DNA of 64,000 nt from Escherichia coli. GTDB lineage: Bacteria > Pseudomonadota > Gammaproteobacteria > Enterobacterales > Enterobacteriaceae. The stretch lies in assembly GCF_003019035.1 (NCBI RefSeq), contig NZ_CP027447.1; one strand, given 5' to 3'. Shown here one piece after another: positions 14,329 through 41,601 of the stretch. A program made the translations under genes and the position numbers. Below the pieces are notes generated by a model. That model was given only the letters and a program-made list of their open reading frames with translations. It was not told where the DNA came from and did not search any database. Position 1 is the stretch's first letter, and each line of letters starts with the position of its first letter.

Positions 14329-14398
14329 ATGCTGAATCTTTACGCATTTCTCAAACCCTGAAATCACTGTATACTTTACCAGTGTTGAGAGGTGAGCA

Positions 14399-26557: not shown

Positions 26558-26633
26558 GCCGATATAGCTCAGTTGGTAGAGCAGCGCATTCGTAATGCGA
26601 AGGTCGTAGGTTCGACTCCTATTATCGGCACCA
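26558..26633 (+). tRNA. thrW: tRNA-Thr (CGT anticodon)
   Basis: 76-nt sequence GCCGATATAGCTCAGTTGGTAGAGCAGCGCATTCGTAATGCGAAGGTCGTAGGTTCGACTCCTATTATCGGCACCA with cloverleaf pairing and CCA end; downstream of proA. Confidence 0.9.
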
Positions 26634-26647
26634 TTAAAATCAATAAG

Positions 26648-27811
26648 TTACACATCATTAGTACCTTCCTTATTTTTTGACTGGGACAAATTTGGGACCG
26701 ATGGGTTCAGGATCGAGTCTATTTGCCGTGCGTGTTCGGTAAGGTGATTAGGTGCAAGGTGAGCATATCGACGAACCATTTCGATAGACTCCCAGCCTCC
26801 CATTTCCTGTAACACTGACAACGGGACTCCGGCTTGAACCAGCCAACTTGCCCAGGTGTGTCTCAAGTCGTGAAATCTGAAATCATCAATACCAGCCCGT
26901 CTCAGCGCCGCTTTCCAGGCTGTGTTTGCGTCATACCGCATCTTCCTTACTGTTGGCGCTTTCGTTCCGTCTGGTTTGGTACAGCTTTCCTTGTACACAA
27001 ATACCCAACGGTGATGATTCCCGATTTGTTTTTTCAATACGCGACATGCAGTATCATTCAGCGCAACGCCAATTGCGCGGTTTGATTTACTCTCTTCCGG
27101 GTTTATCCATGCCACCCGGCGCTGCATATCTATTTGTTGCCATTCAAGGTTGATGATGTTCGAGCGTCTTAAGCCTGTTGCCAGTGCAAATTCAACAACA
27201 GACTTTAATGGCTCCGGACATTCATCAATCAGCCTTTGTGCTTCATGGGGTTCCAGCCAGCGGATCCGTTTATTCTTTGGTTGAGGCACTTTAATAATTG
27301 GTGCCTTATCCAGCATTTTCCATTCACGCTCTGCGGCTCTTAGTAGGGCCTTTATAAATGAAAGATGCGTAGCCTTCGTTGCAACGGACGCTGGTTTTGG
27401 CGTGTATTCTGGAACAGGTTTCCCTTTTTTTCTGCATGCTTCTGCCCTGAGTTTCCAGTTTTCCTCATGACGCCGGTTCGTCATTTTCTGCATTGCTGAA
27501 TAAATTTTTGATTCAGTAATGTCTCTTAGTTGCATTCCTGCGAAATGTTGAAGCCAGAATCCGATCCGGCTTTTGTCATCGTCCAGTGATTTTTTATGTG
27601 CTTTCTCTTCAAGCCACCTGACACACGCTTCCTCGAACGTTATATCAGGTATTTCACCAAGTTTGCTGACCCGCCATGCTTCGGCCTTTAGCTTGTCATG
27701 GAGTTCTGTCGCCTGCCTTTTGTCCTTTGTTCCAAGAGACTGTTTAAATCTTTTACCGTTCGGCAATGTGAAACTGGCGTACCATATTTCACCTCTGCGG
27801 AAGAGTGACAT
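26648..27811 (-). CDS. int: Tyrosine integrase (P22-like)
   Basis: 387-aa ORF closely resembling P22 Int from memory ([41 protein letters not shown]...); C-terminal catalytic motifs HDLRHTWAS and VRRYAHL. Confidence 0.9.
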
Positions 27812-32233: not shown

Positions 32234-32908
32234 TTAGGCTTTGATTTTGTATCTTCTTGGTTTTCCTGAGAAAATCACAGTTCCAATTATAGAGCAATTA
32301 CCGTTGATCTTAATGTAAGGCTCAGGCCAGTTTGGGTTTAACGCTTTGAGATAACGCTGTGTCCCATCTTCTATCAACCTTTTGAAGGTGGTTTCACCTG
32401 TATCGTGCATCAATGCAATAACGTCGTCACCGTGGCAGGCAGGTACTTCAGGATCGACAAAAATCATGTCTCCCGGGCGGTACTCATCAATCATTGAATC
32501 ACCTATCACCCGCAAGATATAAGTCATTTCCCCACAGGGTACAGGGCAGGGGTACGTTTCTGCTGTGCTCAAATCAACCTCAGAATATCCAACTTCTTTC
32601 CATGCTCCGGCCTGTACCCATGATATGACAGGGACTAATGTGATTTGTTTATTAGTGATTGAAACATCAGGTTTTTTTGTGATGTTCGTTGTCTGGTGTT
32701 CTTGATCGAGCCATCCGACAGGCAGGTCGAAACATTTTTCGATGTGTCGTGCCATGCTGTCACCGATATTTTTAGTAGCACCATCTCCCATAAACCTGCT
32801 GGTCTGGGTTGGCTCGCGATCAATCATAGTGGCAAAGGAAGAATTCCCGCCAACACCATCTCTCAGTTTTCTGGCGTTAGACCGCCGGATGTCATGGATT
32901 GTTTTCAT
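32234..32908 (-). CDS. cI: CI-like prophage repressor (HTH plus S24 LexA-like peptidase domain)
   Basis: 224-aa ORF; N-terminal HTH; C-terminal S24 signature (VIGDSM ... GDMIFVDP); divergent from cro-like gene. Confidence 0.85.
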   Translation of the reverse strand: MKTIHDIRRSNARKLRDGVGGNSSFATMIDREPTQTSRFMGDGATKNIGDSMARHIEKCFDLPVGWLDQEHQTTNITKKPDVSITNKQITLVPVISWVQAGAWKEVGYSEVDLSTAETYPCPVPCGEMTYILRVIGDSMIDEYRPGDMIFVDPEVPACHGDDVIALMHDTGETTFKRLIEDGTQRYLKALNPNWPEPYIKINGNCSIIGTVIFSGKPRRYKIKA

Positions 32909-32998: not shown

Positions 32999-33199
32999 AT
33001 GAAAGCGTATTGGGACTCTTTAACCAAAGAACAGCAGGGCGAGTTGGCCGGAAAAGTTGGCTCAACACCTGGCTACTTACGGCTGGTTTTCAATGGCTAT
33101 AAAAAAGCCAGTTTTGTGCTGGCTAAAAAACTTGAGCAATACACATCAGGTGCAATTACGAAATCTGACTTAAGACCGGATATCTATCCGAAAGATTAG
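32999..33199 (+). CDS. cro: Cro-like repressor
   Basis: 66-aa ORF (MKAYWDSLTKEQQGELAGKVGSTPGYLRLV...) with GGAGG RBS; HTH-like; divergent from cI. Confidence 0.6.
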   Translation: MKAYWDSLTKEQQGELAGKVGSTPGYLRLVFNGYKKASFVLAKKLEQYTSGAITKSDLRPDIYPKD

Positions 33200-33230
33200 C
33201 AGAACACTTTCAATTTTTAACCACAGAACG

Positions 33231-33794
33231 ATGAGGCTAATCGTGGGTAAGCATCACTGGAAAATAGAAAAACAGCCTGAGTGGTACGTGAAAGCTGTCA
33301 GAAAAACTATCGCGGCGTTGCCGGGTGGTTACGCTGAAGCGGCTGACTGGCTCGATGTAACAGAAAACGCTTTATTCAACCGCCTTCGTGCAGATGGCGA
33401 TCAGATTTTCCCGCTGGGATGGGCAATGGTTTTACAGCGTGCTGGTGGCACTCACTTCATTGCTGATGCTGTGGCGCAGTCTGCAAATGGCGTCTTTGTG
33501 TCTCTTCCTGACGTCGAGGATGTAGACAACGCCGATATCAACCAACGCCTGCTGGAGGTCATTGAACAGATCGGCAGTTATTCAAAACAGATTCGTTCAG
33601 CAATTGAAGACGGTGTAGTGGAACCACATGAGAAGACAGCAATTAACGATGAGCTGTACCTCTCAATTTCGAAGCTGCAGGAGCATGCAGCACTGGTCTA
33701 CAAAATCTTTTGCGTTTCAGAAAGTAGTGACGCCCGCGAGTGTGCAGCTCCGGGCGCCGTGGCGTGTCGTGACTGTGGAGAAACTAACGCATGA
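33231..33794 (+). CDS. Hypothetical regulatory protein at the cII position
   Basis: 187-aa ORF immediately after cro; Cys-rich C-terminus. Confidence 0.35.
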
Positions 33795-34149
33795 ACAGTT
33801 TAACAACACACTACCGTCGCTCGCAACTGATTGCGCTTCCGGTTCCGGGTGGAAAAGCGAAGGTGGAGTATTGCTATGCAGTGAATGTACCAGGTGACAG
33901 GGAAATTGTAACCCACAGCTTTGCAGAGTGGGCTGTGGGGGATTTCAACCGGCAGAAGGAGACAGTCCTTTGCGACAAGTTAACCGCTGGTTCAAAGATC
34001 ACTACGGAGTGCCCGTCAGAGTCATTCGTTGGGAGCCGGAAACACAACGGGTTATCTACCTCCGCGAAGGCTATGAGCATGAGTGCTTCAGCCCGCTCGA
34101 ACAGTTTCGTCGTAAATTCAGGGAAATAGAGGTCGGTCATGAGCACTAA
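33791..34149 (+). pseudogene. Hypothetical gene split across two frames (33791..34129 and 33928..34149)
   Basis: First ORF starts coupled to the upstream stop (ATGA); second ORF ends coupled to the O-like gene start; the two overlap in different frames. Confidence 0.3.
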
Positions 34150-35080
34150 ATTAACCGGCTATGTATGGGATGGTTGCGCTGCGTCAGGCATGAAGTTATC
34201 CAGCGTGGCAATTATGGCCCGCCTGGCTGATTTCAGTAATGACGAAGGTGTGTGCTGGCCATCAATTGAAACCATTGCCCGCCAGATTGGCGCGGGGATG
34301 AGCACCGTCAGAACGGCTATCGCACGGCTGGAAGCAGAAGGCTGGTTAACGCGTAAGGCGCGTCGCCAGGGTAACCGCAATGCGTCGAATGTTTATCAGC
34401 TTAACGTTGCGAAGCTTCAGGCAGCGGCATTTTCTCAACTGTCAGATTCTGACCCGTCAAAATCTGACGCATCAAAATCTGACCAGTCAAAATTTGATGC
34501 GTCGAAATCTGGCAAAAAAGCGGGTTTTCACCCGTCAGAATCTGGCGGGGATCCGTCAGTAAAATCAAAACATGATCCGTCAGATAAAAAACCTTCTCGT
34601 CCGGACGCTTCGCAACCGGACACGCAGACGGATGAACAGGATTTTTTAACTCGCCATCCTGATGCGGTTGTATTCAGCCCTAAAAAGCGCCAGTGGGGAA
34701 CGCAGGATGATTTGACCTGCGCACAGTGGCTCTGGAAAAAAATCATCGCCCTGTACGAGCAGGCCGCCGAGTGTGACGGCGAGGTGGTTCGTCCCAAAGA
34801 ACCTAACTGGACAGCCTGGGCAAACGAAATTCGCCTGATGTGTGTGCAGGATGGTCGTACTCACAAACAAATCTGCGAGATGTATAGCCGCGTCAGCCGC
34901 GATCCGTTCTGGTGCCGTAACGTGCTCAGCCCGTCGAAGCTGCGGGAAAAATGGGATGAGCTTTCCCTGCGCTTATCGCCGTCCGTCAGCACGTACACCG
35001 AAAAACGCGAAGACCCGTACTTCAAAGCCAGTTACGACAATGTGGACTACAGCCAGATCCCGGCAGGATTCAGGGGGTGA
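34139..35080 (+). CDS. Replication initiation protein (O-like; N-terminal HTH, central iteron-encoded linker)
   Basis: 313-aa ORF; N-terminal HTH-like region (GMSTVRTAIARLEAEGWLTRK); central SKSD/PSESG repeats encoded by DNA iterons. Confidence 0.65.
   Translation: MSTKLTGYVWDGCAASGMKLSSVAIMARLADFSNDEGVCWPSIETIARQIGAGMSTVRTAIARLEAEGWLTRKARRQGNRNASNVYQLNVAKLQAAAFSQLSDSDPSKSDASKSDQSKFDASKSGKKAGFHPSESGGDPSVKSKHDPSDKKPSRPDASQPDTQTDEQDFLTRHPDAVVFSPKKRQWGTQDDLTCAQWLWKKIIALYEQAAECDGEVVRPKEPNWTAWANEIRLMCVQDGRTHKQICEMYSRVSRDPFWCRNVLSPSKLREKWDELSLRLSPSVSTYTEKREDPYFKASYDNVDYSQIPAGFRG
34441..34590. repeat. Origin-like iterons inside the O-like gene
   Basis: At least five tandem ~15-bp repeats (cGTCAaAATCTGac) from 34441 to 34513, with further degenerate copies at 34531-34590. 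Confidence 0.6.
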
Positions 35081-35571
35081 TCATGAGTCTTTTGAATGAC
35101 GTTCAGAAATTCATTGAAGCCCATCCGGGGTGTACTTCCGGAGACATTGCGGATGCTTTTGCAGGTTACTCACGACAGCGCGTTCTGCAGTCAGCAAGCA
35201 AGTTACGTCAGAGTGGGCGTGTGGCTCACCGTTGTGAAGGGGATACACGCAGACATTTCCCGCGGCTGACTGAGATACCGCAGGAGCCGGAACCGCAACC
35301 AGTTCGTGAATCCAGACCTGTGCGCAATTTCTATGTCGGCACTAACGATCCCCGGGTGATTTTGTGCCTGACCCGCCAGGCGGAAGAACTGGAGTCCAGG
35401 GGCTTATACCGTCGTGCTGCAACGGTGTGGATGGCGGCATTCCGTGAAAGCCACTCCCAGCAAGAGCGAAACAATTTTCTTGCGCGTCGTGAGCGGTGTT
35501 TACGGAAAAGCAGCAAGCGCGCTGTATCGGGTGAAGAGTGGTATCTGTCAGGGAATTACGTGGGGGCTTAA
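35077..35571 (+). CDS. Hypothetical protein (possible PerC/ANR-like regulator)
   Basis: 164-aa ORF; Arg-rich helical C-terminus; family assignment is a weak recollection. Confidence 0.3.
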   Translation: MIMSLLNDVQKFIEAHPGCTSGDIADAFAGYSRQRVLQSASKLRQSGRVAHRCEGDTRRHFPRLTEIPQEPEPQPVRESRPVRNFYVGTNDPRVILCLTRQAEELESRGLYRRAATVWMAAFRESHSQQERNNFLARRERCLRKSSKRAVSGEEWYLSGNYVGA

Positions 35572-35897
35572 TGACGACGTTAACTCAATGCCAGCAGCAG
35601 GTGCTGGATATGCTGATTTCTTATCAGAAAGAGCGTGGCTTTCCGCCAACCAATCAGGAGGTGGCAACCATGCTGGGATACCGTTCGGTGAATGCAGCGG
35701 TGGAGCATCTTCGCGCACTGGAGAAAAAAGGTGTCATCACGATAAAGCGTGGCGTGGCCCGGGGTATCACTCTTCATACCGCGGTGAAGGACGACGACAG
35801 CGAGGCGGTCGGGATTATCCGCTCACTGCTTGCCGGTGAGGAAAACGCAAGGCTGCGTGCAACCCACTGGTTACATGAGAGGGGCCTGAAAGTATGA
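35571..35897 (+). CDS. LexA N-terminal DNA-binding-domain-like protein (no peptidase domain)
   Basis: ORF-track 35538..35897; ATG at 35571 gives MTTLTQCQQQVLDMLISYQKERGFPPTNQEVATMLGYRSVNAAVEHLRALEKKGVITIKRGVARGITL, which parallels the LexA N-domain; ends after about 108 aa. Confidence 0.6.
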   Translation: MTTLTQCQQQVLDMLISYQKERGFPPTNQEVATMLGYRSVNAAVEHLRALEKKGVITIKRGVARGITLHTAVKDDDSEAVGIIRSLLAGEENARLRATHWLHERGLKV

Positions 35898-36283
35898 AGC
35901 TGATCCTGCCTTTCCCGCCCAGCGTGAACACGTACTGGCGACACCCCAACAAAGGGGCGTTTGCTGGTAAGAGCCTGATAAGCGCGGCGGGGCGAAAATT
36001 CCAGAGCGCGGCGTGCGCAGCAATAGTTGAGCAGTTACGTCGTCTGCCAAAACCAACGTCGGCACCTGCTTCAGTGGAGATCGTGTTGTTTCCTCCGGAT
36101 AACCGGATCCGCGATCTGGACAACTATAACAAGGCGCTGTTTGACGCCCTGACCCACGCGGGTGTGTGGGAAGACGACAGTCAGGTGAAAAGAATGCTGG
36201 TGGAGTGGGGACCGGTTATCCCGGAAGGGAAGGTCGAGATCACTATCAGTAAGTACGAGAAACCGGCGGGTGCAGCCGCCTGA
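35894..36283 (+). CDS. rusA: Holliday-junction resolvase RusA
   Basis: 129-aa ORF; RusA-like catalytic region (RDLDNYNKALFDALTHAGVWEDDSQV). Confidence 0.85.
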   Translation: MKLILPFPPSVNTYWRHPNKGAFAGKSLISAAGRKFQSAACAAIVEQLRRLPKPTSAPASVEIVLFPPDNRIRDLDNYNKALFDALTHAGVWEDDSQVKRMLVEWGPVIPEGKVEITISKYEKPAGAAA

Positions 36284-36302
36284 TTAAGAGGAGAAACGAA
36301 GT

Positions 36303-37100
36303 ATGAATAATCTGATGGTCATTGATGGTATTGAAGTTCGTCGTGATGCTTATGGGCGTTACAGCCTGAACGATCTGCACAGGGCTGCCGGTTCTCTGGA
36401 TAAGCATAAGCCTGCATTCTGGCTCCGCAATGAGCAAACTGAACGTTTAATAAGCGAGTTGCAGATTTGCAACTCGGTCAATATAGAGCCAGTTAACGTT
36501 ATTCGTGGTGGAAATAACCAGGGGACGTATGTCTGCAAAGAACTGGTGTATGCCTATGCAATGTGGATCAGCCCGTCATTCCATCTGAAGGTGATCCGTA
36601 CTTTCGACATGGTAACCAGCGCACCTGAAAAATTATCCGGACAGGCTGCTGACAAGATGCAGGCTGGCGTGATTCTGCTGGACTTTATGCGCCGGGAGTT
36701 AAATCTGTCTAACTCTTCAGTGCTTGGAGCCTGTCAGAAACTTCAGGAGGCTGTTGGCTTACCGAATCTGGCACCGCGCTATGCCATTGATGCTCCTGCT
36801 GATGCACACGATGGCTCAAGTCGCCCTACGCTGTCACTGAGTGCACTGCTGAAACAGTATGGTATCCGCCTGACGGCTAATCAGGCATATCACCAGATGG
36901 TGAAGCTGGGGATCGTCGAGCAGCGCGAACGATACAGCCGTACCGCGATTAACAACATCAAAAAATTCTGGTCGCTGACAGCGAAAGGCTGCATGTTCGG
37001 CAAGAACATCACCAGTCCCGCAAATCCGCGCGAGACGCAGCCGCATTTCTTCGAGTCCCGATTCCCTGAGCTGTTAAAGCTGCTCGATACCGTTCATTGA
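36303..37100 (+). CDS. KilA-N domain protein (antirepressor-like)
   Basis: 265-aa ORF; KilA-N-like N-terminus (VIDGIEVRRDAYGRYSLNDLHRAAG...PAFWLRNEQTERLISEL). Confidence 0.65.
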   Translation: MNNLMVIDGIEVRRDAYGRYSLNDLHRAAGSLDKHKPAFWLRNEQTERLISELQICNSVNIEPVNVIRGGNNQGTYVCKELVYAYAMWISPSFHLKVIRTFDMVTSAPEKLSGQAADKMQAGVILLDFMRRELNLSNSSVLGACQKLQEAVGLPNLAPRYAIDAPADAHDGSSRPTLSLSALLKQYGIRLTANQAYHQMVKLGIVEQRERYSRTAINNIKKFWSLTAKGCMFGKNITSPANPRETQPHFFESRFPELLKLLDTVH

Positions 37101-37101
37101 G

Positions 37102-38097
37102 GTGACCGTGAGAGCACTACTGACCCCTGAAATTGCCCCGCGTATGGGGATCGTATTGTTCAGACCAGGTTCAGAGCTGATGCCCCTGTTTATGCAGGGG
37201 CGTGTCCTGCTGGAGCCTGAGCCGGAACGTTATTCATCTTTCGCCAGTGGTGCCGTTCCGGCGGCATCACAACCGCTGGCGGATGATCCTGCCGTTCGGG
37301 CCGTGTTCCGCAATGAGGCAGTGATCCGTCGTGCTGGTGGCGTGGAATGTCTTGAAAGCTGGTTACTTCGTGAAAAAGGCTGCCAGTGGCCTCATTCCGA
37401 CTGGCACAGCGAGAACATGACCACAATGCGACACGCTCCGGGCGCAATCCGTCTGTGCTGGCACTGCGATAACCAGCTGCGCGATCAGTTCACGGAACGG
37501 CTGGAATCAATGGCAACGGATAACTGTGCCCGCTGGGTGTTGTCTGTTGTGCGTCGGGATCTTGGTTTTGATGACAGTCACGTTGTGACAATGCCGGAAC
37601 TGTGCTGGTGGCTGGTTCGTAATGATCTGGCGGATGCCTTACCGGAAAGCGCAGCCCGTAAGGCACTGAGATTACCGAAGCCTGTTGTGCAGGCGGTCAC
37701 CCGGGAAAGTGACCTTGTACCTTCGGTTCCTGCCACCAGCATTATCCAGGATAAAGCGAAAAAGGTGCTGGCGCTGAAAGTGGATCCGGAGTCGCCGGAG
37801 TCTTTTATGTTACGCCCAAAACGCCGCCGCTGGGTTAATGAAAAGTACACGCGCTGGGTTAAGACACAGCCGTGTGCATGTTGTGGAAAGCCTGCTGATG
37901 ATCCCCACCACCTGATAGGTCACGGTCAGGGTGGAATGGGTACAAAAGCGCATGACCTCTTTGTGTTGCCTTTGTGCAGAAAGCATCACGACGAGCTGCA
38001 TGCGGATACCGTGGCATTTGAAGAGAAGTATGGCTCCCAGCTGGAGCTGATATTTCGTTTTATCGATCGTGCACTGGCAATTGGCGTGCTGGCCTGA
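37102..38097 (+). CDS. DUF968-like prophage protein
   Basis: 331-aa ORF with GTG start; Cys/His-rich C-terminus (CACCGKPADDPHHLIGHGQGGMGTKAHD...CRKHHDELH). Confidence 0.5.
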   Translation: MTVRALLTPEIAPRMGIVLFRPGSELMPLFMQGRVLLEPEPERYSSFASGAVPAASQPLADDPAVRAVFRNEAVIRRAGGVECLESWLLREKGCQWPHSDWHSENMTTMRHAPGAIRLCWHCDNQLRDQFTERLESMATDNCARWVLSVVRRDLGFDDSHVVTMPELCWWLVRNDLADALPESAARKALRLPKPVVQAVTRESDLVPSVPATSIIQDKAKKVLALKVDPESPESFMLRPKRRRWVNEKYTRWVKTQPCACCGKPADDPHHLIGHGQGGMGTKAHDLFVLPLCRKHHDELHADTVAFEEKYGSQLELIFRFIDRALAIGVLA

Positions 38098-38114
38098 TTT
38101 TGTGGAGAAAGTTG

Positions 38115-38456
38115 ATGCGTGATATGTATGAAGTATTGGACCGCTGGGGTGCATGGGCTGCAGCAGATAACAGTGGTGTGGACTGGCAGCCTGTTGCTGC
38201 AGGGTTTAAAGGTTTACTACCTCATGGAAAGAAAACACGCCAACAATGCGATGATGATGAAGGAATCATGATTGACAGCTGTGTTGCGCGATTGCGGAAA
38301 TATAAGCCCGAAGAGTATGAGTTGGTTATTGCTCATTTTGTTATCGGCATCTCACTAAGAACTATTGCAAAGAAGCAGAAGTGTTCTGATGGGACAATAA
38401 GAAAAGAGTTGCAAACAGCTCTTGGTTTTCTGGATGGTGTGCTTTCAATGTTGTAA
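38115..38456 (+). CDS. Late-gene antiterminator Q (QuuD-like)
   Basis: ORF-track 38100..38456; ATG at 38115 with GGAGAAAG RBS; MRDMYEVLDRWGAWAA... parallels DLP12 QuuD from memory. Confidence 0.7.
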   Translation: MRDMYEVLDRWGAWAAADNSGVDWQPVAAGFKGLLPHGKKTRQQCDDDEGIMIDSCVARLRKYKPEEYELVIAHFVIGISLRTIAKKQKCSDGTIRKELQTALGFLDGVLSML

Positions 38457-38461
38457 TATTA

Positions 38462-38484
38462 GGGGGAATTACCCCCCTTTTTTT
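38462..38484 (+). terminator. Rho-independent terminator after Q, overlapping the 3' end of the convergent membrane-protein gene
   Basis: ggggg-aatta-cccccc hairpin followed by a 7-T run. Confidence 0.5.
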
Positions 38485-39017
38485 CTCTGTTGCTTTAATA
38501 AAATTTTGATATTTTGTCTGATTATGATGAGGCAATGTAATAAAAGAAATACCGTTAGTATTGCAAGCCATACGCAAAATAAGCATGCATATAAATTAGT
38601 TGAAAGTCCAATAGTGAATTGTGCAATTGCTGTTGTGATAGAACATAATATTGATGTATTAATAAATGAGGATAAATTGTCTAAAGGTTTATAAAGTACA
38701 CTATCATTGATTTTGTCAATAGGTATACCAGTGGCAATGCTATAAATTTCCTTATATTCCTGAGTTGCAAAAACCTTATCGCGTAAATTTATTATGACAA
38801 AGGTATGCAGGCTCAATAAAAATGAGCCCACGGAAATAAAACCGGAGAAGAGATAGCCTCGTAAGTTTTTATGATAAAAATCAAAAAAGTTAACACTTAC
38901 TTTAGGTGTGTTTCTGTACAATAGGTAAAGTGCAAGCAATGCCAGGATCGAGAATGCAAGCAGTGTAAGGTACTGATACCTCAATCTTTTATTTATTAGC
39001 CATTCATATAAAGGCAT
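38469..39017 (-). CDS. Unassigned 182-aa four-helix integral membrane protein (gene B of AT-rich cassette)
   Basis: ORF-track; four hydrophobic segments (approx. residues 17-35, 54-78, 119-143, 144-166); basic C-terminus (RQNIKILLKQQRKKGG); start overlaps gene A stop by 14 nt; very AT-rich codon usage. Confidence 0.6.
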   Translation of the reverse strand: MPLYEWLINKRLRYQYLTLLAFSILALLALYLLYRNTPKVSVNFFDFYHKNLRGYLFSGFISVGSFLLSLHTFVIINLRDKVFATQEYKEIYSIATGIPIDKINDSVLYKPLDNLSSFINTSILCSITTAIAQFTIGLSTNLYACLFCVWLAILTVFLLLHCLIIIRQNIKILLKQQRKKGG

Positions 39018-39930
39018 TTTTATTCGTCCCGTTCAGCATTTCTTCTTTTATCATATCAAAAACAGGGTTTGTTGTATAATTATCGTTTGTCAATCCATTG
39101 ACTTTATCGGCAATTATATCGAAATCGTATGTTTCAAAAAAAACAGGGCAGTTCATAAAATCAATGGTTTTTTCTATTCCTGCATGGTTTACTGCAATAA
39201 CCTGTGCTTTAGTAACTCCACTCATAGAATTATAAATATTTGAAAGATTCTGAGATAGTTGTTGCACTTTTGTTCTGTCGCTAGAATTAAAATTCATATC
39301 TATTGTGGTGGTGTTAACAAATTGTTCAAGCGCAGTCATTGGTCCACCTTTAAAATCTATATAATTAAATTTAAAGCTTGTGCTTTTAATCTCTTTGAAT
39401 TGACATAAAACACTCTGAATGTTGTTTTTATTTGTCATAAGGCTGAAAGTCAGTCTTTCTTTGTATTTTTTATTTATTGCAGTTACTTCTTTTTGTTTTG
39501 GTTTATCACCAAGTTTTTTTATTTCTTCTTTATTTTGATTTCTGATAAATTCATTACTTATTGTTTCTAAATGAGAAAAGAGAGTGTTCAGACTGCATGA
39601 ACCGTGGTGATACATATAGAGACCAGAAAGATTAGATTTTTTAATTAAGAAAAAGTTGAAATTAGCAAGTTTGTCACTTCCTTGAAGATCTTCAATTTTA
39701 AGCTGGAATTTACCATCAACAAATTGCGACTTACAGTTCTTTTTTTGGTTTCTGAATGTGACAACTAATCCATAATAGAAATCATTCACATCCGAAATGA
39801 GAATTTTACGAGTATAGTCTGTGCGACTGTGTTCTCTGTTTGATGCGTTGATAAAAGCATTCATTACGTCAACGGTATTAATATTTTTGTTATTGTTATT
39901 TATTGTAAATCCTATGCTTCTAACTTTCAT
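39004..39930 (-). CDS. Unassigned 308-aa soluble protein (gene A of AT-rich cassette)
   Basis: ORF-track; Asn/Lys-rich; no hydrophobic helices; no Walker A or nucleotidyltransferase motif seen; AT-rich. Confidence 0.6.
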   Translation of the reverse strand: MKVRSIGFTINNNNKNINTVDVMNAFINASNREHSRTDYTRKILISDVNDFYYGLVVTFRNQKKNCKSQFVDGKFQLKIEDLQGSDKLANFNFFLIKKSNLSGLYMYHHGSCSLNTLFSHLETISNEFIRNQNKEEIKKLGDKPKQKEVTAINKKYKERLTFSLMTNKNNIQSVLCQFKEIKSTSFKFNYIDFKGGPMTALEQFVNTTTIDMNFNSSDRTKVQQLSQNLSNIYNSMSGVTKAQVIAVNHAGIEKTIDFMNCPVFFETYDFDIIADKVNGLTNDNYTTNPVFDMIKEEMLNGTNKNAFI

Positions 39931-40398: not shown

Positions 40399-40548
40399 TG
40401 GCGGTTTCCTGCTGTGAAAATGGGCGGCTGGTGGGTGTTGGTAGCACCTGCCAGCCATTCGCTCATGCTTACTGGTCACAAGCGAACCACGGCCCACTGC
40501 TTTAGCGCAAAAGCAGAGTGAGCCTACCAGAGTTACGCTTACTGATCC

Positions 40549-41601
40549 ATGAAAAATACTGTAAAAATAAACAGTGTTGATTTAATCAACGCTGATTGCC
40601 TGCATTTTATTCAGTCCCTGCCTGATGATTCCATTGACCTGATTGTTACCGATCCGCCTTACTTCAAGGTGAAACCTAACGGTTGGGACAATCAGTGGAA
40701 AGGGGACGAAGATTACCTTAAGTGGCTGGACCACTGTCTGGCCCAGTTCTGGCGGGTGTTAAAACCTGCCGGAAGCCTTTACCTGTTCTGTGGGCATCGC
40801 CTGGCATCTGATATTGAGATCATGATGCGTGAACGTTTCAACGTGCTTAACCATATCATCTGGGCGAAGCCGTCCGGACGTTGGAATGGGTGTAATAAAG
40901 AAAGTCTGCGCGCATATTTTCCTGCCACAGAGCGCGTTCTGTTTGCTGAACATTACCAGGGGCCATATCGCGGCAAAAGTGACGGCTATGCGGCAAAAGA
41001 AAGGGAACTCAAACAGCACATAATGGCACCGCTGATATCGTATTTCAGGGATGCTCGTGCCGAACTGGGTATAACGGCAAAACAAATTGCCGAAGCCACA
41101 GGTAAGAAAAATATGGTTTCCCACTGGTTTGGTGCCAGTCAGTGGCAGTTGCCGAATGAGGCTGACTATCGGAAGTTACAGGCACTGTTTTCCCGTATAG
41201 CGGCAGAGAAGTTTCAGGAACAACAACTGGAACAACCACACCACCAGCTGGTGGCATCTTATGATTCACTGAATCGCAAATATTCTGAATTGCTGGATGA
41301 GTTTAAATCTCTCCGGCGCTATTTCTCCGTATCAGTCTCCGTGCCTTATACCGATGTCTGGACGCATAAGCCCGTTCAGTTCTACCCGGGTAAACATCCG
41401 TGCGAGAAACCGGCGGATATGCTCCGGCAAATAATCAATGCCAGTAGTCGACCTGGTGATCTGGTTGCTGATTTCTTTATGGGATCCGGTTCCACAATAA
41501 AAGCAGCAATGGCGCTGGGGCGTCGGGCGTTAGGTGTTGAACTTGAGTCAGAGCGGTTTAATCAGACGGTGAAAGAGGTAAGTGAACTGGTGGGGAAATA
41601 A
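40549..41601 (+). CDS. DNA methyltransferase (N6-adenine / N4-cytosine class, DPPY motif), orphan
   Basis: 350-aa ORF; catalytic motif IVTDPPYF near N-terminus and AdoMet-binding-like C-terminus (DLVADFFMGSGST); no adjacent restriction gene recognised. Confidence 0.8.
   Translation: MKNTVKINSVDLINADCLHFIQSLPDDSIDLIVTDPPYFKVKPNGWDNQWKGDEDYLKWLDHCLAQFWRVLKPAGSLYLFCGHRLASDIEIMMRERFNVLNHIIWAKPSGRWNGCNKESLRAYFPATERVLFAEHYQGPYRGKSDGYAAKERELKQHIMAPLISYFRDARAELGITAKQIAEATGKKNMVSHWFGASQWQLPNEADYRKLQALFSRIAAEKFQEQQLEQPHHQLVASYDSLNRKYSELLDEFKSLRRYFSVSVSVPYTDVWTHKPVQFYPGKHPCEKPADMLRQIINASSRPGDLVADFFMGSGSTIKAAMALGRRALGVELESERFNQTVKEVSELVGK

Follow-up and report, generated by a model that had tools for sequence, protein, structure and literature searches.

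Prophage induction, the release of Shiga toxin, mutagenesis and tolerance of antibiotics all depend on LexA and RecA, and a phage gene encoding part of LexA raises the question of what the phage does with it. Such a gene lies in the stretch of 64,000 nucleotides of Escherichia coli DNA analysed here (the window), in which the dinB region of the chromosome is followed by an SfV-like lambdoid prophage that runs from its integrase gene through to the window end (Table 1). The thrW gene next to proA is the integration site of this prophage, an attachment site of the SfV type. The presence of the LexA-domain gene is far beyond chance, since thousands of genomes, and divergent phages as well, keep its open reading frame intact. 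The first-pass annotation had proposed that its product could occupy SOS boxes without being inactivated by RecA*. We find this to be the best-supported reading, and the most likely role suggested by our sequence analysis would be that of a protein that binds LexA-type operators, is insensitive to RecA and serves the phage in lytic growth, a role to which we assign a probability of roughly 0.4.

Table 1. Positions of the features discussed, in window coordinates unless a phage locus is named
Feature	Position	Strand	Remarks
dinB region of the E. coli chromosome, SOS box	14365-14384		upstream of the 351-aa dinB ORF
proB and proA	between dinB and thrW		
tRNA-Thr gene (thrW)	26558-26633		adjoins proA
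Integrase gene	26648-27811	-	prophage start
CI-type repressor gene, S24 self-cleavage domain	32234-32908	-	phrog_4; UmuD-like/CI-like C-terminal matches
PerC-like gene, upstream	35077-35571	+	phrog_1324/2608 'transcriptional activator'; yfdN/PerC family in E. coli annotations
LexA-domain gene, stop codon included	35571-35897	+	ATG to TGA, 108 aa; ORF list and sequence
LexA-type winged helix-turn-helix, residues 1-68	35571-35774	+	PF01726; fold match of AlphaFold model to 3jso
Flexible linker, residues 69-74	35775-35792	+	pLDDT below 50 at residues 71-73
Family-specific two-helix hairpin, residues 75-103	35793-35879	+	predicted helices 75-88 and 93-103, pLDDT ~86
rusA, downstream	35894-36283	+	phrog_34, RusA-like resolvase
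KilA-N protein gene	36303-37100	+	phrog_129 'transcriptional regulator'
DUF968/HNH gene	37102-38097	+	PHROG match
Q antiterminator gene	38100-38456	+	PHROG match
SOS box TACTGTAAAAATAAACAGTG	40557-40576		codons 3-9 of the late-region DNA methyltransferase gene (40549-41601)
SOS boxes inside cI genes	L004:5546-5565; L009:7094-7113; L097:2836-2855; L081 (phiNP):4082-4101		
Example loci of the longer subfamily	L083:9385-10393; L096:2893-4784; L098:7561-8357; L101-L180		

Fold, contact residues and tail of the protein

Alignment against LexA family profiles had been suggested at first pass as a check on the assignment. The protein matched the whole Pfam LexA_DNA_bind model PF01726 (1–65/65, E 3.8e-19) and the N-terminal part of the NCBIfam lexA model TIGR00498 (profile positions 1–91 of 203), the latter with 70.8 bits, which is under the curated whole-protein cut-off of 110.95 bits. 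A phmmer search against the PDB returned E. coli LexA structures at E ~1e-15. In the AlphaFold model, built on 36 family members (pLDDT 80.8), helices span residues 6–22, 28–35 and 40–52 and the wing strands residues 56–58 and 66–68; it superimposes on the E. coli LexA–DNA complex 3jso with an rmsd of 0.9 A over 68 columns, at 50% identity. Both profiles, phmmer and the model thus agree that the 108-residue product carries a LexA winged helix, as had been claimed. The protein was also matched over its full length by phrog_362 (residues 1–108 against profile positions 1–106 of 106, E 1.1e-59), which is labelled 'transcriptional repressor'. Weak PHROG and Pfam matches to O-like and DnaD-like winged helices were found as well (E 0.0085 to 0.22). 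A search for defence systems with PADLOC gave a weak winged-helix match alone (E 3.6e-4), and membership of a defence system was rejected on this ground.

LexA contacts DNA through Ser39, Asn41, Ala42, Glu44 and Glu45 in helix 3 (PMC3091678), and Asn41 is also named as a contact in a second study (PMC5999292). The phage protein has S39, N41, A42, V44 and E45, so that four of the five contacts are kept, together with the LexA wing residues R64 and G65. Across 36 family members, S39 is present in all, N41 in 35 and A42 in 30; position 45 is Glu in 20 and Asp in seven, and is replaced by Leu in a large Klebsiella group. LexA Glu44 and LexA Arg28 are each found in 0 of the 36. Judged from this alignment, the core of the LexA reading head is kept, with a systematic family-specific change, a pattern compatible either with CTGT still being recognised, at altered affinity, or with a specificity that has shifted.

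Because Glu44 and Arg28 are never kept, specificity may have shifted, as in gp6 of phage GIL01. An unlikely alternative, which ranks second to the operator-binding role, is accordingly a transcription factor specific to the phage: its LexA-derived domain would have drifted to another operator, and it would switch a phage promoter, for example that of late or nin-region genes, instead of acting at SOS boxes. The replacement of both residues in 36 of 36 family members is what would be expected of such a factor, and GIL01 gp6, a truncated LexA homologue with a palindrome of its own that activates a late promoter, is a precedent for it. The conservation of S39, N41 and A42 speaks against it, however, as positions 40–42 are those that determine half-site choice, known from the altered-specificity mutant LexA408.

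A Pfam scan found no S24 peptidase/dimerisation domain with its Ser119/Lys156 dyad, and the protein ends at residue 108, in line with the earlier claim that the autoprotease domain is missing. That the product also ends before the Ala-Gly cleavage site stands in one respect only: a conserved cleavage site is absent, but the chain continues through a linker and a two-helix hairpin. HMMER pairs the 'SLLAGE' of the phage protein with 'RVAAGE' of LexA, the location of the Ala84-Gly85 site. Within the family, A88 is kept in 18 of 36 sequences and G89 in 15 of 36, and the segment is helical in the predicted structure. Since it is unconserved and predicted to be helical, we conclude that this local AG is not a cleavage site; a remnant cleavage site or trans-cleavable decoy was rejected on the same evidence. 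Having neither a protease domain nor a conserved cleavage site, the protein should not be inactivated by RecA*. The gene thus encodes a LexA DNA-binding domain and a family-specific helical hairpin, with neither protease nor conserved cleavage site.

The linker varies in sequence and length across the family alignment. The hairpin helices, which LexA itself does not have, are kept among relatives of 38–65% identity, and in the alignment of 36 sequences A97 and L101 never vary and A93 hardly does. LexA DNA-binding domains without dimerisation are weak repressors, as seen in LexA1-87 fusion assays, and the N-terminal domains of LexA are reportedly able to dimerise on operator DNA. For the phage protein, dimerisation was modelled by fusing two copies through a 30-residue Gly-Ser linker and running AlphaFold with 19 family members. 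In this crude test pTM was 0.34 and the pLDDT of the tail went from ~86 to 65–69, leaving a tail-mediated homodimer unsupported.

The lack of support for self-association, crude as the fused-dimer run is, would suit a third explanation, in which the hairpin tail binds host LexA, RecA* or RNA polymerase and the protein, as a decoy or adaptor acting by protein contacts, alters SOS induction. Conservation of the tail equals that of the DNA-binding domain, with two invariant residues, and GIL01 gp7 is an example of a phage protein acting through LexA binding. A pure decoy, however, would not require conserved DNA-contact residues, and we consider this role improbable, behind that of a factor with a drifted operator.

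Operon, expression and distribution

The genes of the region are arranged in the order cI (minus strand), cro, cII-like, an uncharacterised ORF, O-like, PerC-like, LexA-domain gene, RusA, KilA-N, DUF968/HNH and Q. The stop codon of the PerC-like gene overlaps the start codon of the LexA-domain gene (TAATG), whose own stop overlaps the ATG of rusA (ATGA). Sequence scans revealed no promoter-like site on the plus strand between cro and the LexA-domain gene and no plus-strand terminator-like site from 33110 to 37526; the strongest such terminator in the scanned region is at 38461–38478, directly after Q. PHROG matches and scan together confirm the early-right location beside rusA and a KilA-N protein that the first-pass annotation had given. 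Its label 'antirepressor' for the KilA-N protein was not established, phrog_129 being described as a 'transcriptional regulator'.

As read from these features, the LexA-domain gene is a translationally coupled member of the pR delayed-early operon and has no promoter of its own. Being so placed, it would be a delayed-early lytic gene, made after CI cleavage. The CI-type repressor is the actual induction switch, and the window copy, made after CI is inactivated, would act only downstream of that switch and could not set the induction threshold. The earlier suggestion that the gene tunes prophage induction is therefore doubtful for this copy. Beyond Q, two leftward genes at 38469–39930 (minus strand) lie between Q and the late region, encode one protein of 182 aa that matches no PHROG and another, of 308 aa, that belongs to phrog_2802, and have a strong terminator on either side; the pair looks like a moron.

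The succession of LexA_DNA_bind and RusA is repeated in E. coli, Salmonella, Atlantibacter and other loci. Relatives of 41–57% identity share the order replication gene, optional PerC, optional Dam/Dcm methylases, LexA domain, RusA, KilA-N or Rha/ANT, DUF968 and Q, and the early-right (nin) position between replication/methylase genes and rusA/DUF968/Q is also found in Cronobacter, Salmonella, Atlantibacter, Klebsiella and metagenomic loci. A fixed early-operon place upstream of Q in divergent phages is a further point for a phage-specific factor with a drifted operator. In Klebsiella prophages the gene is distant from the replication genes and rusA is missing. The weakest explanation, a replication or recombination accessory in the form of a winged-helix helper of an O-like initiator or of RusA at phage DNA, is very unlikely: the gene does lie directly 3' of the replication initiator in some phages, with overlapping codons, and rusA is almost always next downstream, but nin-region order is broadly conserved in lambdoid phages, so that adjacency says little, the Klebsiella gene is remote from replication genes and without rusA, and the O-like and DnaD-like matches that favour such a helper fall short of the LexA match by many orders of magnitude.

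The gene is present in 2232 of 5426 complete E. coli genomes (~41%) at 95–99% DNA identity, and is already annotated, as 'LexA family transcriptional regulator' in E. coli RefSeq entries. Fifty phage records contain it, including SfV (orf42, 'unknown'), SfII, SfIV, mEp460, cdtI and Ayreon, and Stx2a, Stx2c and Stx2k phages are among its carriers. Protein clusters hold thousands of members at 95–99% identity. Profile searches delineate a large Enterobacterales family of 105–135 aa, with members in Citrobacter, Salmonella, Cronobacter, Atlantibacter, Klebsiella and Enterobacter. In the literature searched we found no experimental study of any member of this enterobacterial family and nothing on SfV orf42. 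Four proteins (P0132, P0133, P0149 and P0156) bear tandem LexA DNA-binding domains on one chain, without a protease domain; from their sequences they may be single-chain pseudo-dimers.

SOS boxes in the prophage and its relatives

SOS boxes were scored with a weight matrix made from 25 E. coli boxes. A single strong box, TACTGTAAAAATAAACAGTG, was found in the window's prophage, with 22.4 bits against 19.0 for the best of 50 shuffles. The host dinB box CACTGTATACTTTACCAGTG scored 16.4 bits and, being one of the 25 training boxes, serves as a consistency check and not as an independent control. Scanning for CTGT-N8-ACAG, which had been proposed together with the original assignment, was productive in part: the matrix gave these two boxes, but the simple consensus was not enriched, as 26 matches with one mismatch allowed were counted in the window versus 19 ± 4.7 expected. 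The simple count is uninformative and the weight-matrix scan alone is informative.

The prophage box lies inside the methyltransferase gene, the first gene of the late region, just past a conserved non-coding stretch, and not at a -35 element. It is kept in Citrobacter phage phiNP, Klebsiella phage Kp4866-6 and Salmonella prophages, with flanks that are ~85% identical. Both host LexA and the phage protein are candidates for binding here, and entry into the late operon may thereby be gated by host LexA. The methylase box and the LexA-domain gene occur together in 27 of 27 close phage records, a linkage that is not independent evidence because all 27 are close relatives. Phage phiNP has the boxes and lacks the LexA-domain gene, and since it breaks the pairing, a strict linkage between gene and methylase box was rejected.

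Two further features of these phages were noted. Upstream of the methyltransferase gene, positions 40400–40548 are non-coding, nearly invariant across three phage genera and contain a GC-rich inverted repeat; this putative region probably combines late promoter, Q-utilisation site and terminator. In one cI gene family, a near-perfect SOS box of 21.6–26.2 bits lies in the linker-coding part (Table 1), where the box columns of the alignment are invariant and the neighbouring codons almost unalignable. The cI gene of the window has no such internal SOS box.

In Cronobacter, Atlantibacter and other carrier phages, no SOS box of at least 14 bits was detected within 8–10 kb on either side of the gene, and targets in such carriers would therefore have to be host-encoded. 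The many carriers without a nearby SOS box are also what a factor with a drifted operator would predict. Counts of CTGT-Nk-ACAG in the prophage, with k from 0 to 20, gave nothing besides the canonical N8 box; alternative operator spacings were rejected on these counts, which for this class of sequence argue against a drifted operator.

A different picture emerged for a longer subfamily of 118–135 aa, which has an N-terminal extension. Among its 72 IMG/VR loci for which 1.5 kb or more of upstream sequence is available, 71 have a strong SOS box no more than 2.5 kb upstream, mostly of 25–29 bits, versus 0 of 80 loci in the window's own branch. Klebsiella prophages have the arrangement box, dinI, small partner gene and LexA-domain gene; in a second arrangement a phage recA takes the place between box and partner gene; and in Salmonella a terminator is followed by box, partner gene and LexA-domain gene. 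The partner is phrog_1813, which is always paired with the longer subfamily, and these loci often have a second box with a umuD'-like gene (phrog_3469). One of the Salmonella prophages with a longer-subfamily member (L098) has, in addition, genes for a Cas1-domain protein and an AcrVA2-like protein, which lie between its late methylase and lysis genes (L098:11794-13390, minus strand).

By its sequence context, the longer-subfamily gene looks LexA-repressed, damage-induced and apt to travel with modulators of RecA and the SOS response, and its operons look like a prophage-borne SOS-modulating module. These loci provide new evidence, of a genomic kind, that ties the family to the SOS circuit. 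Such a linkage is hard to explain for a factor that has left SOS boxes for another operator. It bears differently on a role through protein contacts: the constant pairing with phrog_1813, often beside genes whose products target RecA filaments, dinI or recA, fits a protein that works by contacting others, but the window's prophage has no phrog_1813 partner gene, dinI or phage recA, nor does it have a umuD'-like gene.

Proposed role and comparison with known systems

For the RecA-insensitive operator binder we propose the following course of events. Once CI is cleaved, the LexA-domain protein would be made from the pR delayed-early transcript, coupled to the PerC-like gene and rusA. It would recognise LexA-like half-sites (CTGT) and sit on SOS operators after host LexA has been destroyed; alternatively, it would compete with LexA in a fresh infection. 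It would act on the host SOS regulon and on the late-operon box of the prophage itself at 40557–40576, whether by repression or by activation, and as a result the phage would keep control of damage-inducible genes in lytic growth. The gene thus probably lets the phage act on damage-response operators. The complete winged helix, four of five contacts, SOS-wired relatives and one strong prophage box argue for this role; Glu44 and Arg28 at 0/36, a dimer that is unsupported, carriers with no box nearby and the phiNP box without the gene argue against it.

A wider view, possible though doubtful, is that a family of RecA-proof 'surrogate LexA' proteins serves the temperate phages of enterobacteria as an SOS brake or rewiring device of their own. 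One branch, induced by the SOS response along with the partner and with dinI, phage recA or umuD'-like genes, would form a negative-feedback module. The branch of the window, made from pR, would re-silence host damage genes after the loss of LexA, and LexA-controlled rivals such as colicins and antirepressor-driven prophages would be re-silenced too. The surrogate would act on the conserved late-operon boxes and, in related phages, on the cI-internal boxes.

If this is true, a stable, damage-proof LexA surrogate would alter the duration and strength of SOS expression in lysogens or infected cells, and a phage would have evaded the signal that controls a host regulator by copying one half of that regulator. 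Interest in the gene is raised by its prevalence in prophages of pathogenic E. coli; it occurs in ~41% of complete E. coli genomes, and Stx2, cdt and Shigella serotype-converting phages are among its carriers. For experiments, the longer subfamily with its SOS-box operons offers a ready point of entry, at which the role is directly testable.

Compared with E. coli LexA (TIGR00498; PDB 1jhh, 3jso), the phage protein shares the fold of a winged helix that is ~50% identical over 68 residues and keeps Ser39, Asn41, Ala42, Glu45 and the wing residues Arg64-Gly65. Unlike LexA, it lacks the S24 Ser/Lys protease-dimerisation domain and a conserved Ala-Gly, scores under the lexA equivalog cut-off, has Glu44 and Arg28 replaced and a C-terminal hairpin added, and is phage-borne and expressed from pR. 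It resembles more closely the N-terminal LexA fragment (residues 1–84) that arises upon SOS induction, in that both are lone DNA-binding domains beyond the action of RecA*. This fragment is said to keep residual operator binding, and its removal by ClpXP is reportedly required for full SOS induction. Whereas the fragment is short-lived and ends in a ClpXP degradation signal, the phage protein ends in ...ERGLKV after a folded hairpin and, judging by this terminus, may be stable.

DinI, PsiB and GIL01 gp7 are likewise small proteins of mobile elements that reshape the host SOS response, and dinI is an operon neighbour of the LexA-domain family in Klebsiella prophages. In contrast to the phage protein studied here, their targets are RecA filaments or the LexA protein, and they do not work via a LexA-type DNA-binding domain.

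The closest studied analogue, likened by description, is GIL01 gp6, a phage-encoded LexA DNA-binding domain without a protease domain. This truncated LexA homologue of a Bacillus tectivirus consists of the DNA-binding domain alone, is expressed early and completes its wing with a C-terminal extension of 14 residues (Fornelos et al. 2018, PMC6182141). It binds a non-LexA palindrome of its own, GaCACAnnTGTGaC, which overlaps the -35 element of the late promoter P3, and activates P3, a late promoter that also carries LexA boxes (PMC6182141). The two proteins differ in that gp6 comes from a tectivirus of Gram-positive hosts and has no hairpin tail, whereas the window gene is lambdoid and enterobacterial, with a hairpin, and the late genes of its prophage are under Q control. 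Should the window protein bind a new operator instead of SOS boxes, it would be the second case, after GIL01 gp6, of LexA domains serving as phage transcription factors.
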